A stretch of 32,000 nucleotides of DNA, taken from Fibrobacter succinogenes subsp. succinogenes S85 (GTDB taxonomy: Bacteria; Fibrobacterota; Fibrobacteria; Fibrobacterales; Fibrobacteraceae). A program made the translations under genes and the position numbers. The first letter of the stretch is position 1; each line of letters begins with the position of its first letter. Shown one piece after another: positions 5,918 through 30,062 of the stretch. The stretch is taken from positions 480,001 to 512,000 of the forward strand of contig NC_017448.1 of the NCBI RefSeq assembly GCF_000146505.1, given 5' to 3'. The notes under the pieces are model-generated. The model made no database searches. It was given only the letters and a program-made list of their open reading frames with translations, and was not told the DNA's origin.

Positions 5918-6961
5918 TTATTTCTTGTCGCGGATGCGGGCGTAGAGGGTTTCAGCTTTTTCGGTGTCGCCGGCGTTCGAGAAGATATGGCCTACGTTTT
6001 CGGCACCAATGCGGCCCTGAGAATTACCGGCACGCCAAGCCTTCATGTAACATTCAAACGCTTCGTCGTAACGCTTTTGCGTAAAGTAAATTTGCCCTAA
6101 ATCAAGGTTCAAATCGGCGATGCCTTTCTTGTGGCGGAGTCCTTCTTCCAGCGTGAAAATAGCCATCCACGGGGATTCATTCTTGACATACATCTGCGCA
6201 AGATAACGGCGAGCGGAAACGTTTTCAGGGTCCATCATCACGCCGTTTTCCATTTCATTGAGAGCGAGCCGCGTAGAATCCATGCTGCGGTAGTAATACG
6301 AGAGCGTGTAATGTACGTCGGCGCCAGCAGTCGCTGTCATCTGGAGCGCATTCTTGAGCGTCTTCACCGCATATTCGTAATCGCCAAGCTTTTCATAGAC
6401 TTCGGCAAGACCATACCAAGCGTCCATGCGGTCCGGGTTTAGCGCCAGCGCACGTTCAAAATGCTTTTGCGCAAGCGTCCAATCGCTGCCCTTCATATAA
6501 CATTCAGCAAGGGCGAAATGAATGTGATCCGTTTCCGTCCCGAGTTCAATCGCACGGTTGTAGGCGACAATCGCATCGCTCGGAGATTCGGCGAGGTAGT
6601 ACAAATCGCCAAGAAGCATCCAAGCCTTCACAAAATCCGGAAGGAGTTCAACAGTGCGCTTGTAAGCAACCATCGCGACTTCTTTTTTGCCGAGCTGCAC
6701 AAGGGCGTTGCCCAAGTTGAACCACGCAAACGGCTCGTAACGGCCATCGTCAATCGCGGCACGGTAATACTTCACCGATTCCTTGTAACGCCCCTGGTCG
6801 TAAAGCTCGTTCGCCTTGAAGAAGAAATCATCCGCAGCATGCAGCGGCAGCGCAAGAAGGAATACTAAGACGAGAGACGAGAGACGAGAGACGAGAGATT
6901 TTTCTTTCGTCTTTCGTCTGTAGGAGCAAAGCTCCGTTCTATTGTCTAACCTACTTAACAA
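5918..6961 (-). CDS. tetratricopeptide (TPR) repeat protein with signal peptide (TtpD-like position in the TonB2 cluster)
   Basis: Multiple 34-aa TPR units (e.g. YDQGRYKESVKYYRAAIDD, AWFNLGNALVQLGKKEVAMVAYKRTVEL). The signal-peptide-like SLVLVFLLALPLHA|AD is reachable only from the TTG at 6961, the only ATG/GTG/TTG upstream of it in frame. Confidence 0.8.
   Translation of the reverse strand: MLSRLDNRTELCSYRRKTKEKSLVSRLSSLVLVFLLALPLHAADDFFFKANELYDQGRYKESVKYYRAAIDDGRYEPFAWFNLGNALVQLGKKEVAMVAYKRTVELLPDFVKAWMLLGDLYYLAESPSDAIVAYNRAIELGTETDHIHFALAECYMKGSDWTLAQKHFERALALNPDRMDAWYGLAEVYEKLGDYEYAVKTLKNALQMTATAGADVHYTLSYYYRSMDSTRLALNEMENGVMMDPENVSARRYLAQMYVKNESPWMAIFTLEEGLRHKKGIADLNLDLGQIYFTQKRYDEAFECYMKAWRAGNSQGRIGAENVGHIFSNAGDTEKAETLYARIRDKK
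6866..6949 (-). repeat. heptamer-palindromic element, copy A (TAGAC box, GGAGC-TTT-GCTCC hairpin, CAGACGAAAGACGAAAGA, then (TCTCTCG)x4)
   Basis: Read directly on the minus strand as TAGACAATAGAACGGAGCTTTGCTCCTACAGACGAAAGACGAAAGAAAAATCTCTCGTCTCTCGTCTCTCGTCTCTCGTCTTAG. It lies inside the 5' end of the TPR ORF. Its TAG is the tonB stop. Confidence 0.9.
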
Positions 6962-7592
6962 AACGGAACTCCTTTGTAGCTTTTTGTGCTACTGGGAAGC
7001 CGCGTAACTGCGCCGGAGAGAACTTCCACTGGCGAATAGCCTTGAGCGCTTCGATATCAAAGCCATAGCCAGCCGGGTCCTGCGTCAGCACCTGAGCCTG
7101 AGCCACGTCGCCGTTCACATCAATCACAATAAATACTTTCACGTAACCCGAGACGCCCATTTTCTTGGCGCGTTCAGGGAACTTCGGCTGGATTTCGCGC
7201 AACACTTGCGCCTGTTCATCCACTTCGCCAGCCTCGTAAATAACATTTTCCATCGAGCCTGCATCTACGGCAACGCCATCGCCAGCAGCACCGCGAGCAA
7301 GCGACAAATCCATCTGGAAATTCTGACTGCGAGATACACCCATGTGCGCCGAAACCTTGAACGTGTTCGGAGTCGCCACCGTACGGATGACCTTCTGCTT
7401 CACTTCGGGCTTTTTCTCACTCACGAGGACTTCAACTTCGGTCACTTCTTCGAGAACTTTTTCGGACTTCACGCCTTTATCGAAGAACAACACGTTGATG
7501 ACCGGGATCGCAAGGAAGAACACCGCGCCCACGACAAACGAGAGCACAAACGCCACCGGGAATCGGAAATATTTCGCACAAAAGTCAAGCAT
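6951..7592 (-). CDS. tonB: energy transducer TonB
   Basis: N-terminal TM anchor, then a TonB C-terminal domain (GYVKVFIVIDVNGDVAQAQVLTQDPAGYGFDIEALKAIRQWKFSPA). It follows exbB and exbD. Confidence 0.85.
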   Translation of the reverse strand: MLDFCAKYFRFPVAFVLSFVVGAVFFLAIPVINVLFFDKGVKSEKVLEEVTEVEVLVSEKKPEVKQKVIRTVATPNTFKVSAHMGVSRSQNFQMDLSLARGAAGDGVAVDAGSMENVIYEAGEVDEQAQVLREIQPKFPERAKKMGVSGYVKVFIVIDVNGDVAQAQVLTQDPAGYGFDIEALKAIRQWKFSPAQLRGFPVAQKATKEFRFVK

Positions 7593-7603
7593 GAGAGCGA
7601 GAG

Positions 7604-8008
7604 CTACTCCTCCTTATTCGCGGAAATGGAGACTTTTCTCACCTTCGCCAAATTACATTCATCGAGGATATCAACCACGACTCCGTTGGGAGCGTCACGG
7701 TCGCTCACGATAATCACCGGGCGGTCCGGTGCTTCGGCCATCATCTGGCGGAGCACGGTCTGCAAAGTCGAGAGGTTCACCTGCGTCTCGTTGATGTGGA
7801 TGGTCCCCTGACGGGTGACACCAATCAAAATGCTTTCCTTCGCGAGTTCCTTTGCGGTACTCGCCTTCGGCTTCGTCACATCCACGCCAGTTTCTCGCGT
7901 AAACGTCGAAGTCACGATGAAGAAGATCAAAAGGATGAACACCATATCGAGCATCGGAGAGACATCAATGCCTCCACCGCTTCTCGAACGTTTACGGATA
8001 AAACTCAT
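7604..8008 (-). CDS. exbD: biopolymer transport protein ExbD/TolR
   Basis: 134 aa with IDVSPMLDMVFILLIFFIVTSTF (the ExbD TM motif). It overlaps exbB by 4 nt (ATGA). Confidence 0.9.
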   Translation of the reverse strand: MSFIRKRSRSGGGIDVSPMLDMVFILLIFFIVTSTFTRETGVDVTKPKASTAKELAKESILIGVTRQGTIHINETQVNLSTLQTVLRQMMAEAPDRPVIIVSDRDAPNGVVVDILDECNLAKVRKVSISANKEE

Positions 8009-8637
8009 TCAACCTCCTTGGCAAAGCAACGTTCTTCGAACTTGAGCGCTTCGCCCCAGGCAAAATCACCAATAGAATCTACTCGACTTTCGAGATAGTT
8101 ATAAACGAGCATCAACGGGAACGCGACAAGCAAGCCCGCCTGCGTCGTGAGGAGCGCTTCGGAAATGCCATCGGCCAAGAGCACCGGGTTTCCAAAGCCA
8201 AATTGCTTAATCGTCTCGAACGTATGCACCATGCCAGATACCGTTCCCAGAAGTCCGAGGAGCGGAGCAATCGAAGCGCAAGTCACAATCGTCTTGAGCG
8301 ACTTGGAAAGGCTCACGTCCAGTTCGTGACGCGTCGCGAGCATCGCATTGCGTACAGCCACAGGACCATCGTTACGGTACTTCCGCACGTTTTCGACCAA
8401 AGCCAAGAAGTAGCCAAAGCGGCGCTTGCGGAGTTTTGCAAAAGCAGCCTCCTCGCCCACCGTGTCCAAATCCTTGAAGAACTTCGAAGTCGAAGTGCCC
8501 TTCAGCATAAAATAATAGCCGTATCGTTCAAACATCAAGAACCAGCCCAGCCACCCAATCAGGAATAGCGGGAGCAACACCCAGCCGCCGCGCAGCAGGA
8601 TGCTCATGGTCGCTTCGATGACGGAATACTCGTCCAT
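8005..8637 (-). CDS. exbB: MotA/TolQ/ExbB proton-channel protein
   Basis: 210 aa with three TM segments and the conserved block IAPLLGLLGTVSGMVHTF...LLADGISEALLTTQAGLLVAFP. Confidence 0.9.
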   Translation of the reverse strand: MDEYSVIEATMSILLRGGWVLLPLFLIGWLGWFLMFERYGYYFMLKGTSTSKFFKDLDTVGEEAAFAKLRKRRFGYFLALVENVRKYRNDGPVAVRNAMLATRHELDVSLSKSLKTIVTCASIAPLLGLLGTVSGMVHTFETIKQFGFGNPVLLADGISEALLTTQAGLLVAFPLMLVYNYLESRVDSIGDFAWGEALKFEERCFAKEVE

Positions 8638-10205
8638 TACTTTTCCTTAATCCAGATAGCGTTGAGGACGGCAAGGCCCGTCTTTTCCATACGGGTACGG
8701 ACAGAATCCGAGATGTTCACGAGGAGCGTGTGCAAGAGCTGGAGCGGGATAGCCACGATAAGGCCAGCTTCCGTCGTCACAAGGGCAATGGAAATACCGC
8801 CTGCCAAAAGTTTCGGGTCGCTCGTGCCGTGCATGGTGATGACATTGAAAAGTTCAATCATACCCATAACGGTACCCAAAAGACCGAGGAGCGGTGCAGT
8901 CGAGGCAAACACGGAAATCCAGCTGAGGCCCATTTCAAGCTTCGGCACTTCGCCAGCGAACAGGACTTCGAGAGACTTTTCGGCGCTGGCACGGTCCTTG
9001 AAATTCTTGCCAAGCACGGAGCGCAACACCTTGCCCACTTCACCATGAGCACTTTGGGATTCAGCCGTTGCAAGACGGAGGTCGCGATTTGCGAGAGCCT
9101 TTACCGCATTGCGTGCACCACGGCCACCAAAACCAAGCACGAGGAGCCAAACAAGGCGCACGAGGAAGATGATAAGGCCGAGGATAAAGAGCGTTGCAAT
9201 CGGGTACATCAGAATGCCACCGTTGTGGAAAAATTCAGCAAAGTCTTCTTTCCACGTGGTTTCCTGGTGGTTTGCAAGTTCACTCGAAAGTTCGGTACTG
9301 AGGAGGACATCGACCGGCACCATCACGAAAGCGGAATCGTTAGCGCCAGCAAAAGCCTTTGCCACATCCTTGCGCGTTTCGGGAGAGAGATTTTCTTGCC
9401 AGCTATAGACGCGCTTCTTTTCGCCTGCCACCGGGAGCATCAAAGCCGACGGATGGAAGCCGTTGATGTCTGTGACCTTCGCCATCTGCATAGCAAAGAG
9501 GCCGCCCAAGCGCATGCGGTCGCCTTCGGCAACCGAGCTACCGAACATGAGGTCCGCCTTTTCGGTGCGGACTTCACGCGTAAACTTCATTTCTTTCTTG
9601 GCAACGTCGAGCATCGCGCGGGCAATGCGGAGCGGGTCATCACGGTAGAGCCCCATCTCTTTCTTGACCTTATTCTGCGCTTCGACGCGATCGGCAACCT
9701 TGAACGGCACGCCCTGTTCCTGGAACTTGGCGAGCATTTCCAAGCGTTCCGGACCTGCAGCGAGCGAGAGGTATTCGGCACGTGCCTTTTCAGCCTGGAG
9801 CTTGACCTGTGCCAAGTCTTCGCGAGCCACGCGCACATCTTCGAGCAAGCGGGTACGTTCGGACATCAAGGCATCCACGCGTTCCTTGCCGAGCTGATAC
9901 TTTTCATTGAAGAGTTCACGTTCCTTGTTGAACGTTTCGCGGTCCTTCCATCGGGCGGCGACAGCCATGTCGCGCTTGCGGCGGGCTTCTTCGAGATCAG
10001 CCTTAGCGCTGTTGAGTTCGGCGCGTTTCTTGACGGCATCAACAGTCGTGTTCTGCTGAGCATTAGAAGCAGGAGCGAGAAGCAAAACTAAGACGAGAGG
10101 CGAGAGACGAGAGACGAGAGATAAACGCCTCAAAAAACCGCTACTAGAAGACACTCTTTCGTCTTTCGTCTGAAGGGGCGAAGCACCGTTCTTTCGTCTA
10201 AACAT
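8637..10205 (-). CDS. large MotA/TolQ/ExbB-family protein with a ~330 aa N-terminal periplasmic coiled-coil domain (TtpC-like)
   Basis: The C-terminus carries TAPLLGLLGTVMGMIELF...LLAGGISIALVTTEAGLIVAIP. The N-terminus has signal peptide ...LSPLVLVLLLAPASNA|QQ. The ATG at 10205 overlaps the upstream TAA (TAATG). Confidence 0.85.
   Translation of the reverse strand: MFRRKNGASPLQTKDERVSSSSGFLRRLSLVSRLSPLVLVLLLAPASNAQQNTTVDAVKKRAELNSAKADLEEARRKRDMAVAARWKDRETFNKERELFNEKYQLGKERVDALMSERTRLLEDVRVAREDLAQVKLQAEKARAEYLSLAAGPERLEMLAKFQEQGVPFKVADRVEAQNKVKKEMGLYRDDPLRIARAMLDVAKKEMKFTREVRTEKADLMFGSSVAEGDRMRLGGLFAMQMAKVTDINGFHPSALMLPVAGEKKRVYSWQENLSPETRKDVAKAFAGANDSAFVMVPVDVLLSTELSSELANHQETTWKEDFAEFFHNGGILMYPIATLFILGLIIFLVRLVWLLVLGFGGRGARNAVKALANRDLRLATAESQSAHGEVGKVLRSVLGKNFKDRASAEKSLEVLFAGEVPKLEMGLSWISVFASTAPLLGLLGTVMGMIELFNVITMHGTSDPKLLAGGISIALVTTEAGLIVAIPLQLLHTLLVNISDSVRTRMEKTGLAVLNAIWIKEK
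10088..10202 (-). repeat. heptamer-palindromic element, copy B
   Basis: Minus-strand read: TTTAGACGAAAGAACGGTGCTTCGCCCCTTCAGACGAAAGACGAAAGA, a 35-nt spacer, then TCTCTCGTCTCTCGTCTCTCGCCTCTCGTCTTAG. It starts right after the ATG of the TtpC-like gene. Confidence 0.9.
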
Positions 10206-10996
10206 TAGTTAGCCTCCTTCGGAAAAGATACTGGGATAGTCACAAGTCTTGGAGCGGTCTTGCCTTCGGCGACCTTCATCACGTCCTTGAGGACTGTGCG
10301 CATCGTGAGGTCTTCGGAGACGTTCTTCCAGGAGTAGCCGAGACCGTTACGAGTGAGGAACAAAACATCGTTACCGTCATTGCTGACGAAAATCGAGGCG
10401 ACTGCACCGTAGCGCAAATACGTTCCAGCCACGTTGCGAGCGTCCACCTGCAAAAAGCCCTTCCAAACTTCGGTGGTGTAACCCAGGCGGATGCGGTCGT
10501 AAAAGACTTCCATCGTGCGGTTCAAGGCGTCGTCCGTTTCGATTAGGCCCTTGTGCAACATGCTTGCGATTTCCAGGATGTTCTTGACTGCTTCGTCCGT
10601 GCGGTACGGGAAATCCGATTCAAAGAACGGTACGAGAGAATCGATGACCGTCGCAAGAGAATCGGCGTACTTCGTCTTGCGGTTTTCGAAATAGCGGATT
10701 GAGCCATTCGTCTTGGAGCGGGCCGCTGAAATTTTCTTGAGTTCGACCTTGAGCGAATCGATTTCGGCTTTCAAGGACTTGTTCTGGGCCGAGAGGTTCT
10801 GCACCTTTTTGCGACCGACTTCAACGAATTCGGCATGGCGCTTCTTTTCGGCTTCGTGCATAGATTTTTCGCGAGCGGTTTCGGCCTCGACCGTCTTGAT
10901 TTGGCGACGAACGCTTTCTACCGTTTCTTGGGCAACGGCAAAAACGCCAGAAAGCCCCAGACACAACAATACTTTAGGAAGGAATGAAAATTTCAT
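10205..10996 (-). CDS. DUF3450-like periplasmic coiled-coil protein (TtpB-like, first gene of the TonB2-type cluster)
   Basis: Signal peptide MKFSFLPKVLLCLGLSGVFAVAQE, then a coiled coil, then a C-terminal domain (LRYGAVASIFVSNDG...). I chose the start at 10996. The ORF track extends to 11044, and 11002 is also possible. Confidence 0.7.
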   Translation of the reverse strand: MKFSFLPKVLLCLGLSGVFAVAQETVESVRRQIKTVEAETAREKSMHEAEKKRHAEFVEVGRKKVQNLSAQNKSLKAEIDSLKVELKKISAARSKTNGSIRYFENRKTKYADSLATVIDSLVPFFESDFPYRTDEAVKNILEIASMLHKGLIETDDALNRTMEVFYDRIRLGYTTEVWKGFLQVDARNVAGTYLRYGAVASIFVSNDGNDVLFLTRNGLGYSWKNVSEDLTMRTVLKDVMKVAEGKTAPRLVTIPVSFPKEAN

Positions 10997-11060
10997 GTGC
11001 ATAAAATACAAAGAAGTGCGACCAAAATTCACGCACTGATTCAATTTTTATGTAAAAACG

Positions 11061-13760: not shown

Positions 13761-14993
13761 TTACTTTCCTGAATTCAAAATTCGTACATAACTTGCATAG
13801 CGAGCTTCAGAAATTTTGCCCGATTCAACAGCAGCACGCACAGCACAGCCCGGTTCCTTAAGGTGTTTGCAGTTGCTAAACTTGCACGTGAACAAATCAT
13901 CTTCGAAAAAACCCGGAAAAATCTTAGCAAGCGTTTCGGGTTCCATGTCCATAAGGCCAATGCTACGAATGCCCGGCGTATCGATTACGTAACCACCACC
14001 CGGGAAATCAAACAAGCTCGAAGAGGTCGTCGTATGGCGACCCTTGCCGTCGCGTTCACGAACATCTCCCGTGCGCAGTTCGGCGTGAGGAACAAGTTCA
14101 TTAATCAATGTAGACTTGCCGACACCGCTCATGCCACTAAAGACTGAGGACTTTCCGACGAGTTCATTGCGCAGAACTTCGAGGCCATCCCCACTTTTAA
14201 CGCTCACGGGAATCACCTTGTCCACGATTTTCATGAAGTCGCGGATATCGCTCGAAAGGTCCGCTTCGCCGTTCGGCAGCAAATCCATCTTGGTGAGCAC
14301 GAGCACAAACGGCAAATCGTTCAAGTTTGCGGCAAGCAAAAAGCGGTCCATGAATCCGTAGTTGAATTCCGGCTGCGTCACGCTTGCGACAATCACGACC
14401 TGGTCAATATTAGCGGCAAGCGTCTGCTGCTTGTAGAAGCTATCACGCGGGCCCGGGCGCTTGAGTTCGCTCTTTCGCGGGAGCACACGCACAACGCAAT
14501 ACTTCTGCGAACCGACGCCATCGCCTTCGTCATCTGCATCGTTCACGAGACCGAGCAAAACGCGGTCGCCCACGGCAGGAAATTCACCAAGCGTTTTGGA
14601 CGTTGTCGCACGGTACATGGCAGTAACTGTGTTAGACGAAAGACGAGAGTCGAGAGACGAGAGAGGGGTATTTTCTTTCGTCTCTCGTCTGTAGCTCGCG
14701 TCAGCGAGCGTTCTATCGTCTAACCGCACTTCGCAGGTGCGGCGGTGGACTTCGAGCACAAGGCCTTCCACACAATTTTCTTCACCGATGTTTTCAACCG
14801 GATTCTTGATACGCTTGATTTTCGCCTTTTTAAATTCGCGACTGAAACGTTCCTTGATAGGACGTTCATCAACGACTCCCGATTCCAATTCACGCATCAC
14901 GTCGATACGGCGGCTTCTGTGTTCGCGTCTTGATGTGCGAACACTCTTCAAAGGAGCTTCATTTTCGTCGGAATCAAAATCGTTATTTCGCAT
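13761..14993 (-). CDS. rsgA: ribosome small-subunit-dependent GTPase A (RsgA/YjeQ) with a basic N-terminal extension and an in-frame repeat-element insertion
   Basis: Circularly permuted GTPase motifs LVLTKMDL (NKxD-type) and FSGMSGVGKSTLINEL (G1), plus the zinc knuckle CKFSNCKHLKEPGCAV. The OB-fold strands VEGLVLEVHRRTCEV ... VTAMYRA...AVGDRVLL are split by about 30 codons. Confidence 0.9.
   Translation of the reverse strand: MRNNDFDSDENEAPLKSVRTSRREHRSRRIDVMRELESGVVDERPIKERFSREFKKAKIKRIKNPVENIGEENCVEGLVLEVHRRTCEVRLDDRTLADASYRRETKENTPLSSLDSRLSSNTVTAMYRATTSKTLGEFPAVGDRVLLGLVNDADDEGDGVGSQKYCVVRVLPRKSELKRPGPRDSFYKQQTLAANIDQVVIVASVTQPEFNYGFMDRFLLAANLNDLPFVLVLTKMDLLPNGEADLSSDIRDFMKIVDKVIPVSVKSGDGLEVLRNELVGKSSVFSGMSGVGKSTLINELVPHAELRTGDVRERDGKGRHTTTSSSLFDFPGGGYVIDTPGIRSIGLMDMEPETLAKIFPGFFEDDLFTCKFSNCKHLKEPGCAVRAAVESGKISEARYASYVRILNSGK
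14632..14722 (-). repeat. heptamer-palindromic element, copy C (inside the rsgA coding sequence)
   Basis: Minus-strand read: TTAGACGATAGAACGCTCGCTGACGCGAGCTACAGACGAGAGACGAAAGAAAATACCCCTCTCTCGTCTCTCGACTCTCGTCTTTCGTCTAA. The modular order is the same as in copies A, B and E. Confidence 0.9.
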
Positions 14994-15270: not shown

Positions 15271-15323
15271 GGTCTAAAGATAGAAATTAGTAGACGGTAG
15301 GAAGTTGGCAGTAGGAAGAAGAA
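15271..15323. repeat. variant TAGAC/GTAGGAA heptamer element
   Basis: GGTCTAAAGATAGAAATTAGTAGACGGTAGGAAGTTGGCAGTAGGAAGAAGAAAGA. It shares TAGACGGTAGGAAGT with 18044-18058 and GTTGGCAG with 20223-20230. Confidence 0.7.
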
Positions 15324-16551: not shown

Positions 16552-16639
16552 ATCCTATGCGGTCCACTTCTCCGCTTGCACCCGTATGGGTGAGCTACGG
16601 CCTTCGAGGCAAGGGAAGTATTCATTTCAAAGAGGCTTT

Positions 16640-18025: not shown

Positions 18026-18026
18026 A

Positions 18027-18060
18027 TAGTTAGAAGTAGGAAATAGACGGTAGGAAGTAA
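18027..18060. repeat. variant GTAGGAA/TAGAC element, left arm (after the purF stop)
   Basis: TAGTTAGAAGTAGGAAATAGACGGTAGGAAGTAA. It is inverted relative to 18110-18140, which reads ACTGTCTACTTCCGACAGCCTATAGTCTACTAA. Confidence 0.65.
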
Positions 18061-18077
18061 CGCTAACGTCATAACAC

Positions 18078-18101
18078 AAAAGGCTCCAAATGGAGCCTTT
18101 T
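18078..18101. terminator. bidirectional intrinsic terminator between purF (+) and the epimerase gene (-)
   Basis: AAAAGGCTCC-AAAT-GGAGCCTTTT: an 8-bp GC-containing stem with flanking A and T runs. Confidence 0.75.
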
Positions 18102-18109
18102 AAAATACA

Positions 18110-18140
18110 CTGTCTACTTCCGACAGCCTATAGTCTACTA
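18110..18140. repeat. variant GTAGGAA/TAGAC element, right arm
   Basis: GTCTACTTCC and TAGTCTACTA are reverse complements of GGAAGTAGAC/TAGTAGAC-type boxes seen at 18031-18058 and 15288-15300. Confidence 0.6.
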
Positions 18141-18141
18141 A

Positions 18142-19062
18142 TTAAGCGTTTTCAAATGTCCAGCGGATGTGTTCATCCAAAAATTCATGGGCATCGAATG
18201 CCAAATCAAAACTGTCCTTGATTTTCTGGACGCTATAGAGCATGGGTTCATCACCCCACCCCATATCGGTTTCAACGATTTTTGATTTGCACCCAGGCTT
18301 AAGGGCAATCATCTTTTCTGCAATTTCTTTCCAGCTAATCCATTCAGAACCAAGACCGAGGAAGATTTCTTCGTTCAAATCGGATTCCAGGAGCTTCATA
18401 TAAATTTGAGCCTGCTGAGAAGCATGGATAAACTGCGTACCGTCATTCTTGATGATATTGATATCGCGGTCTTCCTTGACAGCATAAGCCATTTCAAAGA
18501 ACCTGCGGTCAGGCTGAGAGCACCCATCGGGGAACGCCGGATTGCCAAACGTATATCCCGGACGGATAATATTGCGTTTCATCTTGACTTCGGGAAACTG
18601 GCTTCCGTAACCATGGCTAAAGCCAAGCACAAAAGCCTCACCAGCCGCCTTGGTCGCCCCATAAAGGTCAATCGGCAAATTGCTCGTCATCTCGTGCATT
18701 TCGGAACGCACACGTCCCATCGCCGAGGTGCTGCTAGTATAAATAAACTTGTCACAACCCGCACGAGCGGCCATTTCCAAAAGAGCGATCGTTGCACGAG
18801 TATCGTTCATGAGCATTGCACTTGGAGTATCGCCCCAACCGAGAGCCACGTGAATGCAGGCATCACAGCCGACAAGGCCCTCGCCCATCTTTTCAAAATC
18901 CGTCAAAGCGGCCTCGACAAACGAGACGTTCGGATTAGCCCTTAAAGTCGGCACCTTGTTCGGGTGACGCGTTGCTACAACGACTTCATGCCCTCTATCC
19001 AAAAGAGCCTTGACCACATAATGACCGATAAAGCCGGTACCACCCGTTACAAATACTCGCAT
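18142..19062 (-). CDS. NAD-dependent epimerase/dehydratase family protein (extended SDR)
   Basis: MRVFVTGGTGFIGHYVVKALLDRGHEV (Rossmann GxxGxxG) and YGATKAAGE (YxxxK). I chose the start at 19062; the ORF track extends to 19095. Confidence 0.85.
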   Translation of the reverse strand: MRVFVTGGTGFIGHYVVKALLDRGHEVVVATRHPNKVPTLRANPNVSFVEAALTDFEKMGEGLVGCDACIHVALGWGDTPSAMLMNDTRATIALLEMAARAGCDKFIYTSSTSAMGRVRSEMHEMTSNLPIDLYGATKAAGEAFVLGFSHGYGSQFPEVKMKRNIIRPGYTFGNPAFPDGCSQPDRRFFEMAYAVKEDRDINIIKNDGTQFIHASQQAQIYMKLLESDLNEEIFLGLGSEWISWKEIAEKMIALKPGCKSKIVETDMGWGDEPMLYSVQKIKDSFDLAFDAHEFLDEHIRWTFENA

Positions 19063-20224: not shown

Positions 20225-20316
20225 TTGGCAGAACTTAGACCGCTTCGCTCTTAGAACTTAGACAAGTTGATCCAAACATTTTTCTAAGCTCTAAGTTCTA
20301 AGCTCTAAGTTCTAGT
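20225..20316. repeat. sibling heptamer-palindromic element built from CTTAGAA / TCTAAG(C/T) units
   Basis: TTGGCAGAACTTAGAC-CGCTTCG-CTCTTAGAACTTAGAC, a 19-nt spacer, then TCTAAGCTCTAAGTTCTAAGCTCTAAGTTCTAG. It is preceded by the hairpin GCGGC-GTT-GCCGC (20210-20222). Confidence 0.85.
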
Positions 20317-20334
20317 AACTACGAACTAGTAACT

Positions 20335-20964
20335 ATGAACTATAACTTAATAGTAGATACATCCCGAAAGGGAATTTCGATGGCACTGAGCGCGGACTCC
20401 GTGTACGAAGAAATGGTCGATCCATCTGCCAAGGGCGAAATTCTAAGCGCAAGCTTGGATAACCTTTTGGCTAAGGTCGGCGCCACTCTCGATGACGTGA
20501 AGCGTGTCATGGTAACTGTCGGACCGGGCTCGTTCAGCGGACTGCGAACGGGCGTCGCGTTCTGCCAGGGCCTTTGCTTTAGCGGCAAGCGCAATTTGTA
20601 TGGCGTGACGACATTGCAAGCCCTCGCCTGCTTTGCCGGCGTTCCCGATGAATCTGTTGCTGTCGTGATTCGCGCACGCAATGGATTCTGGTACTTGCGT
20701 TTGAACAACGAAGAGAGCTTTATTGAAACTGCAGACGTTGTTGCACGACTCCAGGCTAGTTCCGTGAAGAACGCTGTTGTTGATGCAGCCGCGCTTACAG
20801 ACGAAGCGCTCGTCGCCGTTTTCAAGGACAAAGGAATCGCAACGACTCTCGACACCGACAAGAAGCTCAACATGTGGTCTCCGCTTTTTGATACTGTGAA
20901 ACCATCGCTCATTCAAGAAGCAAACTACATCCAGCCGTCTTACTTCGAGAAGTTGAAGGTGTAA
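20335..20964 (+). CDS. tsaB: tRNA N6-threonylcarbamoyladenosine biosynthesis protein TsaB (YeaZ)
   Basis: VTVGPGSFSGLRTGVAFCQGL matches the GPGSFTGLRIG motif. It is followed by rimI, the usual pairing. Confidence 0.8.
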   Translation: MNYNLIVDTSRKGISMALSADSVYEEMVDPSAKGEILSASLDNLLAKVGATLDDVKRVMVTVGPGSFSGLRTGVAFCQGLCFSGKRNLYGVTTLQALACFAGVPDESVAVVIRARNGFWYLRLNNEESFIETADVVARLQASSVKNAVVDAAALTDEALVAVFKDKGIATTLDTDKKLNMWSPLFDTVKPSLIQEANYIQPSYFEKLKV

Positions 20965-24231: not shown

Positions 24232-26571
24232 ATGAAAAAGCCACTCAAAATCACCCTCATTGTATTAGGATCTTTGATCCTCCTCTACTTCGTCACACTT
24301 CTCGTAGCGCCCAAGATTGCCCGTAGCTACATCGAAGAGCACTCCAAGGAAATGATTGGCCGAAGCATCACCATCAAGAACATCAGCCTGAACCCGTTTA
24401 CCTACGTCTTGGACGTAGATACGCTCGCGGTCATGGAAGCGGACGACAAGACCCGCTTTGTCGCGTTCGACAAGTTCAGCATGAACATCAACCCGTTAAA
24501 GCTCTTCACGAGAACGCTTGACATCAGCGACATCTACATGAAGGCCCTCTATGTTCGCACCACGCAGCACGGAGAACGCTTCAACTTCTCCGACATTCTA
24601 GACTTCCTCGCCCAAAAGGACAGCATCTATTATGCCGAGCACCCCGAAGAAAAGAAGGTCGAATCGGACAGCAGCAAGAGCGCTGCCGAAATCGCCGCCG
24701 GGCTCCCCGTCAAGCTCAGCCTGAGAAACATTGTATTCGACAAGGGCAACATCATCTACCAGGATACAAAAGTCGGCTCCAAGTTCCACCTCAAGGACTT
24801 TTCCATCAACATCCCGGCCATTTATCTCGAAGACAACTCGACCGGCGTCGACGTGAGCCTCAAGTTTGCAGACGGCGGTGACCTGAACGTGAAGGTCGAT
24901 GCCAACATGGCCACCTACGACTTCAACATTTTCCTGAACCTGAATAGATTTGCACTCTCCTGCATCAAGCCGTACCTGAACGATTCCATCAACTACAAGG
25001 ATTTTGCGGGTTACCTCTCGGCTCAAATCTCCATCAGCGGTAACATCAACAGCATCCTCGCCTCCAATGTCAAGGGCAAGGTCTCGCTCGACAAGATTGA
25101 CCTCACCGAAGTCAGCGGAAGCAAGATGGGCGCAGAAAACGTCACCGTCGGAATCAACAAGGCAAACCTCGTCGACAACGAATACCTCATCGACTCCGTC
25201 ATCGTAGATGGTGCCTTCGCCCACATCGACCTGTACAAGGACGGCAAGACAAACATTGACGTACTCCTCACCCCGAAGAACAAGGCCGGAAGCGTGACGG
25301 ATACAACCGCCGCCGATTCTACGCAGGTAGAACCGGTTGCAGAAGCTGCAAAGCAAGAACCCGCAGACACGACGAAGGTCGTCGCTGATTCGACTAGCGC
25401 AACAACCACAGCAGAAAAGCCCGCCGCCGCAAAGAAGCTCAAGGCGAAGATTAACAAGCTCCTCGTCAAGAACACTTACATCACCATCACCGATCACACC
25501 ATTATCCGTCCGTTCAACTACAAGGTGAGCGCCATTACCGTTACCGGCCAGAACATCAACTACGACACGCCTTGCAACGTGAACGTTTCTGCCGCATTCC
25601 CCGAAGGTGGCAGTCTCTCGCTCAAATACCACGGAGCCCTCAGCAACCTGAACACGATGGACATCTACATCAGCGTGAAAAACCTCGTGCTCAAGCACTT
25701 CTCGAACTACTCGTTGCACTACACAGCCTACCCGCTCAAGGCAGGCACCCTCGCCTTCGCCAGCGAAAACAAGATTGTCGACCGCAACCTCGACAGCAAG
25801 AACACCATCGACATTTACAACATCACCGTCGGGAACAAGGTGGACGACATTGATCCGGAATACACAGTCCCGATGAAGATCGGTCTCTATATCTTGAAGG
25901 ACAAGGACGACAAGATTCAGTTCGACGTGCCGGTCAAAGGTAACCTGGACGACCCGGAATTCTCTTACGGCAAAATCATCTGGAAGACAGTCGTGAACCT
26001 TCTCGTAAAGGTCGCCATTTCGCCGTTCAGACTCGTCGGGAACCTCGCCATGGCAGGCGCCAACGCTCTCGGCTTTGACCTCGGCAAGAACAACGAAGTG
26101 CTAATTGATGCCAACACCGAAACGTTCACCAGCGAACAATACGCCAAGGCCATCAAAATGACCGAAATGCTCCAGAAGGATCCGAAGTTAATGCTGACAT
26201 TCACGCAATACTACAATCCGAGAAAGACAGCCAAGGAATACAAGGTCAAGCAGCTCAAAATTGATTTCTACAAACAAAAGAATAATAAGACTGAACTGAA
26301 CGAACTTGACTACAGAGCCATTGAAGAAATCAAGGAAAAAGACAAGGAGTTCCAGGCTTACGTCAAGGAACATTCCGCTGAAATTGACAAGAACTACATG
26401 ATGAAGGTTCTCCCGCAAATGGCAACAAAGCGCAACAACGACCTTCTCAAGGTCTTGCGCGCACAGCCGGGTGTCACGAAAAAGAACCTCAAGGTCATCA
26501 CTGCTCCGAGAGACGCACTCCGCGGCTACAAAGACAAACCGATGTATAAAGTTGACGTAGACGTACAATAA
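24232..26571 (+). CDS. DUF748 / AsmA-like large envelope protein
   Basis: N-terminal anchor MKKPLKITLIVLGSLILLYFV and a long beta-rich repeat body. The C-terminal block PMKIGLYILKDKDDKIQFDVPVKGNLDDPEFSYGKII is typical of DUF748. I chose the start at 24232 to avoid overlapping the GH9 gene. Confidence 0.7.
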   Translation: MKKPLKITLIVLGSLILLYFVTLLVAPKIARSYIEEHSKEMIGRSITIKNISLNPFTYVLDVDTLAVMEADDKTRFVAFDKFSMNINPLKLFTRTLDISDIYMKALYVRTTQHGERFNFSDILDFLAQKDSIYYAEHPEEKKVESDSSKSAAEIAAGLPVKLSLRNIVFDKGNIIYQDTKVGSKFHLKDFSINIPAIYLEDNSTGVDVSLKFADGGDLNVKVDANMATYDFNIFLNLNRFALSCIKPYLNDSINYKDFAGYLSAQISISGNINSILASNVKGKVSLDKIDLTEVSGSKMGAENVTVGINKANLVDNEYLIDSVIVDGAFAHIDLYKDGKTNIDVLLTPKNKAGSVTDTTAADSTQVEPVAEAAKQEPADTTKVVADSTSATTTAEKPAAAKKLKAKINKLLVKNTYITITDHTIIRPFNYKVSAITVTGQNINYDTPCNVNVSAAFPEGGSLSLKYHGALSNLNTMDIYISVKNLVLKHFSNYSLHYTAYPLKAGTLAFASENKIVDRNLDSKNTIDIYNITVGNKVDDIDPEYTVPMKIGLYILKDKDDKIQFDVPVKGNLDDPEFSYGKIIWKTVVNLLVKVAISPFRLVGNLAMAGANALGFDLGKNNEVLIDANTETFTSEQYAKAIKMTEMLQKDPKLMLTFTQYYNPRKTAKEYKVKQLKIDFYKQKNNKTELNELDYRAIEEIKEKDKEFQAYVKEHSAEIDKNYMMKVLPQMATKRNNDLLKVLRAQPGVTKKNLKVITAPRDALRGYKDKPMYKVDVDVQ

Positions 26572-26614
26572 TAGACGAGAGAACGCCGCTCTGCGGCTAC
26601 AGACGAAAGACGAA
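26572..26614 (+). repeat. heptamer-palindromic element, copy D (left half only)
   Basis: TAA|TAGACGAGAGAACGCCGCTCTGCGGCTACAGACGAAAGACGAAA. It has box 1, the GC hairpin and box 2, but no TCTTTCG arm. A terminator hairpin follows instead. Confidence 0.8.
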
Positions 26615-26620
26615 AAAAAA

Positions 26621-26646
26621 GGCATCGCTGAGCGATGTCCTTTTTT
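26621..26646. terminator. intrinsic terminator between convergent DUF748 (+) and nucleotidyltransferase (-) genes
   Basis: GGCATCGC-TGA-GCGATGTCC hairpin with an A8 run before it and a T6 run after it. Confidence 0.65.
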
Positions 26647-28010: not shown

Positions 28011-28292
28011 ATGATCAAGCCTTTAGCAGATCGAATCGTTGTCAAGCCGGCAGAAGCCGAACAGAAGACCTCCTCCGGTCTCTTCATTCCGGATAATGCA
28101 AAGGAAAAGCCGATGCAGGGTAAGGTCGTGGCCGTAGGTCCGGGTCGCAAGAACGACAAGGGCGAAGTAGTCGCTATGGAAGTCAAGGTTGGCGACGTGG
28201 TGCTTTACGGCAAGTACAGCGGTACCGAAGTTACCGTTGATGGCGAAAACTTCCTCATCGTTAAGGAATCCGACGTTATCGCTACTCTGTAA
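28011..28292 (+). CDS. groES: co-chaperonin GroES
   Basis: [45 protein letters not shown]... is canonical Cpn10. An AAAGAGGA Shine-Dalgarno precedes the ATG at 28011. The track start at 27891 is an upstream extension. Confidence 0.95.

Positions 28293-30062
<1,770 letters not shown>

Follow-up and report, generated by a model that had tools for sequence, protein, structure and literature searches.

In Fibrobacter succinogenes subsp. succinogenes S85, the gene for a tetratricopeptide repeat (TPR) protein, the last gene of a TonB2-type cluster, starts at a TTG codon that is closely followed by a palindromic repeat of 85 nucleotides (nt), here referred to as copy A, with four tandem TCTCTCG heptamers. 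The locus raises two questions: is copy A translated as part of the signal peptide of the TPR protein and, if so, do the heptamers switch the gene on and off? The stretch analysed here (the window) comprises 32 kb of contig NC_017448.1 (positions 480,001 to 512,000), and all positions below are positions within it. We suggest, with a probability of about 0.78, that copy A is an in-frame insertion of a Fibrobacter palindromic repeat that is translated in the leader of a TtpD-like TPR protein, comparable in behaviour to the Rickettsia palindromic elements (RPEs), and that the heptamers are an arm of fixed length.

An earlier note on this DNA had reported the start of the leader, and the minus strand of 6961-6830 indeed begins TTG TTA AGT AGG TTA GAC. 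The features of the leader, all on the minus strand, are the following:

6969-6974, minus: Shine-Dalgarno (SD) sequence AAGGAG of the TPR gene, within the last tonB codons (K-E-F), 7 nt upstream of the TTG; kept at all loci
6959-6961, minus: TTG start codon of the TPR gene; ancestral, with an 11-nt overlap with the end of tonB
6951-6953, minus: TAG stop codon of tonB; host sequence, seen in the empty sites L016, L018, L019, L022 and L026
6865-6949, minus: element copy A, 85 nt, one of five copies in the window; reads LDNRTELCSYRRKTKEKSLVSRLSSLVL
6936-6949, minus: 5' box of copy A, TTAGACAATAGAAC
6923-6935, minus: P2 hairpin of copy A, GGAGC-TTT-GCTCC
6903-6922, minus: AGACGAA boxes of copy A, TACAGACGAAAGACGAAAGA
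6899-6902, minus: loop of copy A
6871-6898, minus: 3' arm of copy A, (TCTCTCG)x4
6865-6870, minus: tail of copy A, TCTTAG
6836-6864, minus: host-encoded rest of the signal peptide, (V)FLLALPLHA, with the predicted cleavage site LHA/ADD between 6836 and 6835

The strand thus reads AAGGAG-TTCCGTT-TTG TTA AGT AGG TTA GAC, continues through the 5' box, the hairpin and the AGACGAA boxes in the codons AAT AGA ACG ... AAA GAA AAA, and passes via (TCTCTCG)x4 and TCTTAG into TATTCC. Tandem Repeats Finder describes the heptamers as a repeat of period 7 with 4.4 copies, 100% matches and a score of 62 at 6868-6898. The translation of the leader in S85 is MLSRLDNRTELCSYRRKTKEKSLVSRLSSLVLVFLLALPLHA, followed by ADD. 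Its n-region has 26 residues and a net charge of +5 and precedes an uncharged stretch, LSSLVLVFLLALPLHA, with L at position -3 and A at position -1. These are features of a Sec-type signal peptide (net charge +5, core LSSLVLVFLLALPL, L-H-A followed by A), as judged by hand-made rules for charge and core that were applied to the sister allele L007 (FFLALPLYA) and then transferred to S85.

The earlier note had also attributed the parts of this signal peptide correctly: the AGACGAA boxes encode the basic stretch YRRKTKEK of the n-region, and the first part of the h-region, LSSLVL, comes from the heptamers and forms part of a 16-residue uncharged stretch. On its own, the host-encoded VFLLALPLHA seems too short, and the export signal now appears to depend on residues from the repeat. 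No in-frame ATG, GTG or TTG is found in S85 between the TTG at 6961 and the hydrophobic core, and NCBI annotates the S85 gene from this TTG. The TPR and TonB proteins of the window are identical to those encoded in CP001792.1.

Combining these observations, we suggest that ribosomes start at TTG 6961, probably coupled to termination of tonB translation given the 11-nt overlap, and read through copy A. The AGACGAA boxes would lengthen the n-region by the basic YRRKTKEK, and the last heptamers would supply LSSLVL which, joined to the host VFLLALPLHA, would give the hydrophobic core and the LHA/ADD cleavage site of a Sec-type signal. In this model, the element is a polymorphic multi-copy insertion that would survive only where the frame stays open.

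Frame conservation at the tonB-TPR junction

The junction was compared in 55 genome loci that were fetched with the mature TPR protein as query, so that the junction itself had no part in their selection, and in 10 added contigs with an identical TonB and two metagenome contigs. The comparison comprises 64 junction sequences, i.e. 59 distinct sequences and 40 structural types, and three of the 64 are S85 itself. The distance from the TTG to the conserved A[DE]D[FY]F boundary, which is preceded by A and is kept in all TPR orthologs, ranges from 51 to 351 nt. In all 64 junctions this distance is a multiple of three and the frame is free of stops. Reading in the +1 frame meets stops in 32/33 insertion types and reading in the +2 frame in 33/33, with about three stops each. 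All precursors in the 64-junction set end in an uncharged stretch of 13-21 residues with A at -1, and all n-regions are net positive. Six of the 33 insertion types, the S85 type included, lack any other in-frame start in the vicinity of the hydrophobic core.

Empty orthologous sites read ..AAGGAGTTCCGCTTTGTTAAGTAGGTTGTTG.., i.e. MLSRLLCLLLLAVPLFA followed by AED. These element-free sites (..AAGGAGTTCCGCTTTGTTAAGTAGGTTGTTGTGTTTGCTG..) have the same SD sequence, the same TTG with its 11-nt overlap with tonB, and a short signal peptide of 17 residues. Because the TTG, the MLSR codons and the tonB TAG are present in empty sites, they are ancestral host sequence, and the element was inserted right after them. 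This bears on three proposals of the earlier note. That TTG 6961 is the start is upheld by the lack of another in-frame start before the core and by the conservation of SD, TTG and MLSR in all orthologous loci. The proposal that the whole leader is read through the element is right as to the open frame and needs correction for the TTG and the first four codons (MLSR), which belong to the host. Similarly, the 11-nt overlap with tonB is real, and the tonB stop that had been ascribed to the TAGAC box (6944-6948) is a separate host TAG at 6951-6953, which precedes TTAGAC by 2-3 nt and is also found at orthologous sites that lack the element.

The exbD-tonB spacer of the same operon served as a negative control. 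Of its distinct lengths above 60 nt, only 9/21 are multiples of three, with the same kinds of repeats, and stops precede the tonB ATG by one or two codons. The lack of constraint on the repeats in this spacer argues that frame conservation is a property of the position and not of the repeats. In S85 the spacer is empty and has 11 nt (7593-7603); in other strains the same repeat families extend it to up to about 860 nt.

Strains with an identical TonB protein have five different junction states, one of which is empty. In total, the comparisons strongly support the view that copy A is translated as part of the TPR leader from TTG 6961.

A family of heptamer-armed palindromes

Copy A belongs to a Fibrobacter family of palindromic repeats of 85-115 nt. 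AGACGA/TCGTCT hexamers are three times over-represented in the window (45 versus 15.4 +/- 4.1 in shuffles). The window holds five element copies, A to E, all oriented like the flanking genes; more than 30 copies are found in 0.93 Mb of related loci, and 31/34 of the 5' halves in the compared loci are oriented like the operon. The other copies in the window are:

10088-10202, minus: copy B, 115 nt, directly after the ATG at 10205 of the gene for a long MotA/ExbB (TtpC-like) protein; SD AAGGAGG, TAATG overlap with the DUF3450 gene
14631-14723, minus: copy C, 93 nt, in frame inside rsgA, in the N-terminal (OB-fold) region
26571-26620, plus: copy D, 5' half only, abutting the TAA stop of an AsmA/DUF748 gene (TAA directly followed by TAGAC); a terminator-like hairpin at 26621-26646 follows
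28292-28400, plus: copy E, untranslated, filling the spacer between groES (stop TAA at 28290-28292, TAA directly followed by TAGAC) and groEL (ATG at 28428)

The copies share a common plan of TTAGACGAnAGAAC, a small hairpin, TAcAGACGAAAGACGAAAGA, a variable spacer of 4-38 nt, (TCTnTCG)x4 and TCT(t)A, in which the terminal inverted repeats TTAGACGAAAGA ... TCTTTCGTCTAA form the outer stem. The predicted fold is a Y-shaped three-way junction of the outer stem, the small variable hairpin and a long stem of 7-nt boxes (AGACGAA with TCTnTCG). Copies C and E have fold z-scores of about -6.3 on either strand, and the arms of copy E (TCTTTCG/TCTATCG) are perfectly complementary. Copy A folds at -41.5 kcal/mol (z -6.1) in antisense and at -28.1 kcal/mol (z -2.8) in sense; the sense fold is weaker because TCTCTCG opposite AGACGAAAG gives A.C in sense and G.U in antisense. 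The small hairpin covaries, with 97% of cells paired, compensatory changes in 3/5 pairs and a score reached by 0/500 shuffles. An Rfam scan of the window at the gathering cut-off and at E<=1 gave no match to any element copy, only the Fibro-purF motif passing, and literature searches yielded no published description of palindromic or miniature inverted-repeat transposable element (MITE)-like repeats in Fibrobacter.

Direct reading of the arms gives RRKTKDE for (AGACGAA)n and SLVSRLS for (TCTCTCG)n in all three frames, without stops, and the equivalence of three heptamers and seven codons in the earlier note is correct. As 7 and 3 are coprime, each heptamer arm encodes one stop-free cycle of seven residues in every frame, and for this reason most insertions are tolerated; stops can come only from the element ends (TTAG, CTAC-AG).

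Two further coding sites behave in the same way. Copy B is read as the leader of the TtpC-like protein, MFRRKNGASPLQTKDERVSSSSGFLRRLSLVSRLSPLVLVLLLAPASNA followed by QQ, with the 3' arm in the same frame as in copy A (..LSLVSRLSPLVLVLLLAPASNA followed by QQ) and in-frame GTG and TTG codons in the spacer. At this DUF3450-TtpC-like junction, 47/48 loci keep an open frame between the SD-ATG and the mature QQ.., and the exception is a mis-anchored alignment. The junction is a repeat hot spot with lengths of 69-201 nt, and AGACGAA, AATGTGN, AATTCGG and GGTACGA all occur as heptamer words directly after the ATG. In rsgA, copy C is a 31-residue insertion between ..CEVRL and TVTAMYRA.. (..CEVRL[DDRTLADASYRRETKENTPLSSLDSRLSSNTV]TAMYRA..). 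The frame is kept there in 16/16 loci, with inserts of 0 to about 60 residues that consist of other repeats or almost nothing; the shortest site, in L011 (RLDDGTVTA), resembles the 5' box of the element. An alignment to solved RsgA structures does not begin until GDRV, about 25 residues past this site, which places the insert in the N-terminal OB region, probably at a beta-turn.

The window contains palindromes of other heptamer words as well. One of them, at 20225-20347 (+) between ddl and tsaB, reads GAACTTAGA ... (TCTAAGc/t)x4, then (AACTAnG)n, with a predicted hairpin of -44 kcal/mol (z -4.0). Boxes of the TAGGAAG/CTTCCTA type are found at 15285-15320 (+) and at 18026-18145 (+), where they bracket the terminator hairpin between purF and a convergent gene; in other strains, the same CTTCCTA x4 arm is read as FLLPTVYFLLL within the TPR leader. 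For F. succinogenes S85, 29 "CRISPRs" are listed in a CRISPR survey (PMC4852346), and we speculate that these may perhaps be false positives caused by the repeats described here.

Weighing other readings of copy A

Several points weigh against our proposal. The support for translation of the element comes from comparing sequences, not from the protein level, and many of the compared sequences are metagenome-assembled genomes (MAGs) or metagenome assemblies, which are prone to mis-assembly of short repeats. In some strains, the n-regions would have 60-96 residues, which is unusual for Sec signals; internal starts may be used in these strains instead. Mobility of the element is suggested by its polymorphism: a clean target-site duplication could not be defined by comparing filled with empty sites, in which the flanks also differ, and no partner transposase was found within the 32 kb of S85 and the operon-centred loci. 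A scan of viral contigs for the 5' half of the element gave 0 matches. Finally, copy A is identical at 85/85 positions in all five sources in which it occurs, although the adjacent coding flanks are only 86-98% identical, and this hints at an extra constraint or a function beyond that of a tolerated passenger.

One such function would be that of a cis-element, whose structure or heptamer boxes act on expression and which is translated only because of where it lies. The element could mask the SD sequence and the start, thereby tying TPR synthesis to tonB translation, or be a site of RNase processing or stability, or bind a post-transcriptional regulator. The common orientation of the copies with the flanking genes and the operon, their position at gene starts, ends or junctions, the covarying hairpin and the 85/85 identity amid flanks that have diverged by 2-14% are all consistent with this reading, and a precedent is offered by TAACTGA heptamer repeats next to start codons, for which binding of such a regulator has been proposed (PMC4679880). 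Moreover, a 15-bp pairing is predicted at 6936-6975 (-) between the SD-spacer-UUG region and the 5' box plus one hairpin strand, and the predicted SD/UUG paired probability is 0.96-0.98/0.83-0.99 in the S85 type versus 0.74/0.44 in empty sites. As a general effect of insertions, SD/start masking was considered and rejected, being marginal on average (0.85/0.59 versus 0.74/0.44) and strong in some types only, S85 included. Strains with an identical TonB have the site empty or filled with unrelated repeats, and no particular element is therefore required. Also, copy C lies deep in rsgA, far from any start, and the element, for which folds are predictions only, lacks an Rfam match. We consider regulation by the element unlikely; the 85/85 identity and the predicted SD-UUG pairing keep the idea alive.

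Alternatively, and in our opinion rather improbably, the palindromes could be a modular, exchangeable "leader cassette", in which the arms, stop-free in any frame, give charged n-regions and part of the signal-peptide core, the 5' parts pair with SD and start, and both together set how far an operon-internal exported protein depends on upstream translation. If so, cassette swaps between strains or rare one-unit changes would tune or silence components of the TonB machinery.

The earlier note had further proposed that the heptamers are an on/off switch, in which (TCTCTCG)x4 gains or loses units by slippage, and had held that an invariant unit number would speak against it. Such a switch would work by slipped-strand mispairing and be akin to the CTCTT repeats of Neisseria opa leaders. 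The arithmetic of this proposal is sound: the tract lies within an open reading frame (ORF), the unit is not a multiple of three, and one heptamer fewer (three units) gives a stop at codon 30 and one more (five units) a stop at codon 47. Its premise of a variable tract, however, finds no support. As far as can be tested, the unit number is invariant, with four units in all five independent sources of this allele: S85, a rumen MAG (L007), an ENA assembly (L062) and two JGI metagenome contigs (L067, L068). The element played no part in the finding of L007 and L062, and the search pattern for metagenomes accepted 2-6 units. None of the 64 junctions is a frameshifted allele. In 0.95 Mb of Fibrobacter DNA, 38/40 of the TCTnTCG-type arrays that reach at least four units have exactly four and 2/40 have five; the four-unit arrays are nearly all 3' arms, untranslated ones such as that of copy E included, and three of the 38 correspond to long AGACGAA arrays at the TtpC start, read as their reverse complement. 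The length of four units equals the 1.5 + 2.5 units of the 5' boxes with which the arm pairs. Tracts at known phase-variable loci are far longer, and four units are short for a contingency tract. At the TtpC-like junction, strains do vary in their number of AGACGAA units, from 3 to 5 and always with compensating changes; these differences argue for change on evolutionary time scales but not for a contingency locus. The four heptamers are a 3' inverted-repeat arm of fixed length rather than a hypermutable tract, and we regard a contingency switch as very improbable.

That copy A is untranslated leader RNA, with TPR translation beginning downstream at a non-canonical codon or with a TPR protein that lacks a signal peptide, is hardly credible: nothing specific speaks for it beyond TTG being a minor start codon and the element being untranslated at groES-groEL, and against it stand the missing in-frame start before the core, the frame that is open in 64/64 junctions but not conserved in the control spacer, and the empty sites, where the TTG with its SD and MLSR clearly opens a normal signal peptide of 17 residues.

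Known repeats and the host cluster

Accepting copy A as a translated insertion, we find its closest parallel in the RPEs (Ogata et al. 2000), which insert in frame within genes, as reviewed in PMC10969869. Both elements are multi-copy palindromic repeats of roughly 100 nt that lie in frame and stop-free in conserved ORFs and leave the host protein intact. In both, presence and absence vary between relatives and the sites tolerate an extra peptide, here in the n-region and in an rsgA loop. The hosts belong to different phyla and the likeness is one of behaviour only, for which we claim no sequence relationship. Unlike RPEs, the Fibrobacter element is shorter (85-115 nt), has arms of 7-nt boxes that give the same peptide cycle in all frames, favours the first codons of operon-internal exported proteins and adds to the core of signal peptides. 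It is best described as a new, heptamer-armed form of the known class of protein-coding palindromic repeats.

With MITEs and intergenic palindromes (Correia/NEMIS, ERIC, REP/BIME) the element shares terminal inverted repeats, strong predicted hairpins, presence/absence polymorphism at orthologous sites, co-transcription with neighbours, occasional ORF fusion and a high copy density, with five family copies and other families in 32 kb. A likeness to REP is that the antisense strand has GTAG followed by a hairpin in 4/5 copies. The element differs from MITEs in its strong sense-strand bias and its three-way fold in place of a simple hairpin, and neither a target-site duplication nor a partner transposase was identified for it in the loci compared.

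The tracts of opa genes are long and demonstrably variable. Similar to the Fibrobacter tract, the opa CTCTT repeat is a CT-rich tandem repeat in a region coding for a signal peptide, gives hydrophobic residues and has a unit that is not a multiple of three (PMC3960869, PMC5354566; for reviews on phase-variable repeat tracts, see PMC3960869 and PMC2651432). In contrast to opa, the Fibrobacter tract has four units, shows no variation among the sequences examined and forms one arm of an inverted repeat, a caution that short tandem repeats in leaders should not be taken for phase-variation switches without population data. The cyanobacterial STRR heptamers are comparable heptamer direct repeats. 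The TAACTGA repeats of Beggiatoaceae, Cyanobacteria and Bacteroidetes likewise form 7-nt arrays of 2-6 units that are mostly near and directed toward start codons, occasionally lie inside ORFs and are scattered before unrelated genes (PMC4679880). The Fibrobacter arrays differ from these in using other words, of which there are several, in having a complementary partner array, i.e. a palindrome, and in often lying after the start codon, where they are apparently translated.

In total, the locus is a natural experiment in how structural or selfish repeats can live in coding sequence, in which dozens of start-proximal insertions are all in frame and the frame is not kept by the same repeats a few hundred bases upstream in an untranslated spacer. 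With it, the range of protein-coding palindromes, of which those of Rickettsia are the best known, would extend to a free-living cellulose degrader of the rumen and to signal peptides. Translated repeats would also explain why near-identical Fibrobacter proteins have been called with widely differing N-termini. Database gene calls for near-identical TPR proteins (P0001-P0030) differ at the N-terminus and range from 312 to 405 aa, with callers choosing differing starts within translated repeats, such as the recurrent ..SNFNYKF..CGRGPSSE.. peptide of another repeat family.

The host locus, with domains assigned by Pfam and the last gene placed by gene order, is as follows:

about 5.9-11 kb, minus: TonB2-type cluster
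10205-11044, minus: DUF3450 gene
8637-10205, minus: long MotA/ExbB (TtpC-like) gene
8005-8637, minus: ExbB gene
7604-8008, minus: ExbD gene
6951-7592, minus: tonB, 213 aa, TonB_C domain
5918-6961, minus: TPR protein gene, 347 aa, last in the cluster, in the TtpD position

The order DUF3450, long MotA/ExbB, ExbB, ExbD, TonB and a last accessory gene parallels that of the Vibrio TonB2 operon, ttpB-ttpC-exbB-exbD-tonB-ttpD (PMC6957404). The likeness lies in gene order and domain content and is confined to the host locus, repeat insertions not being reported in the Vibrio operon, and the TPR protein is called TtpD-like for its position in the cluster. Elsewhere in the window, the Fibro-purF RNA motif, a known Rfam family, is found with 99 bits at 16562-16636 (+), upstream of purF.

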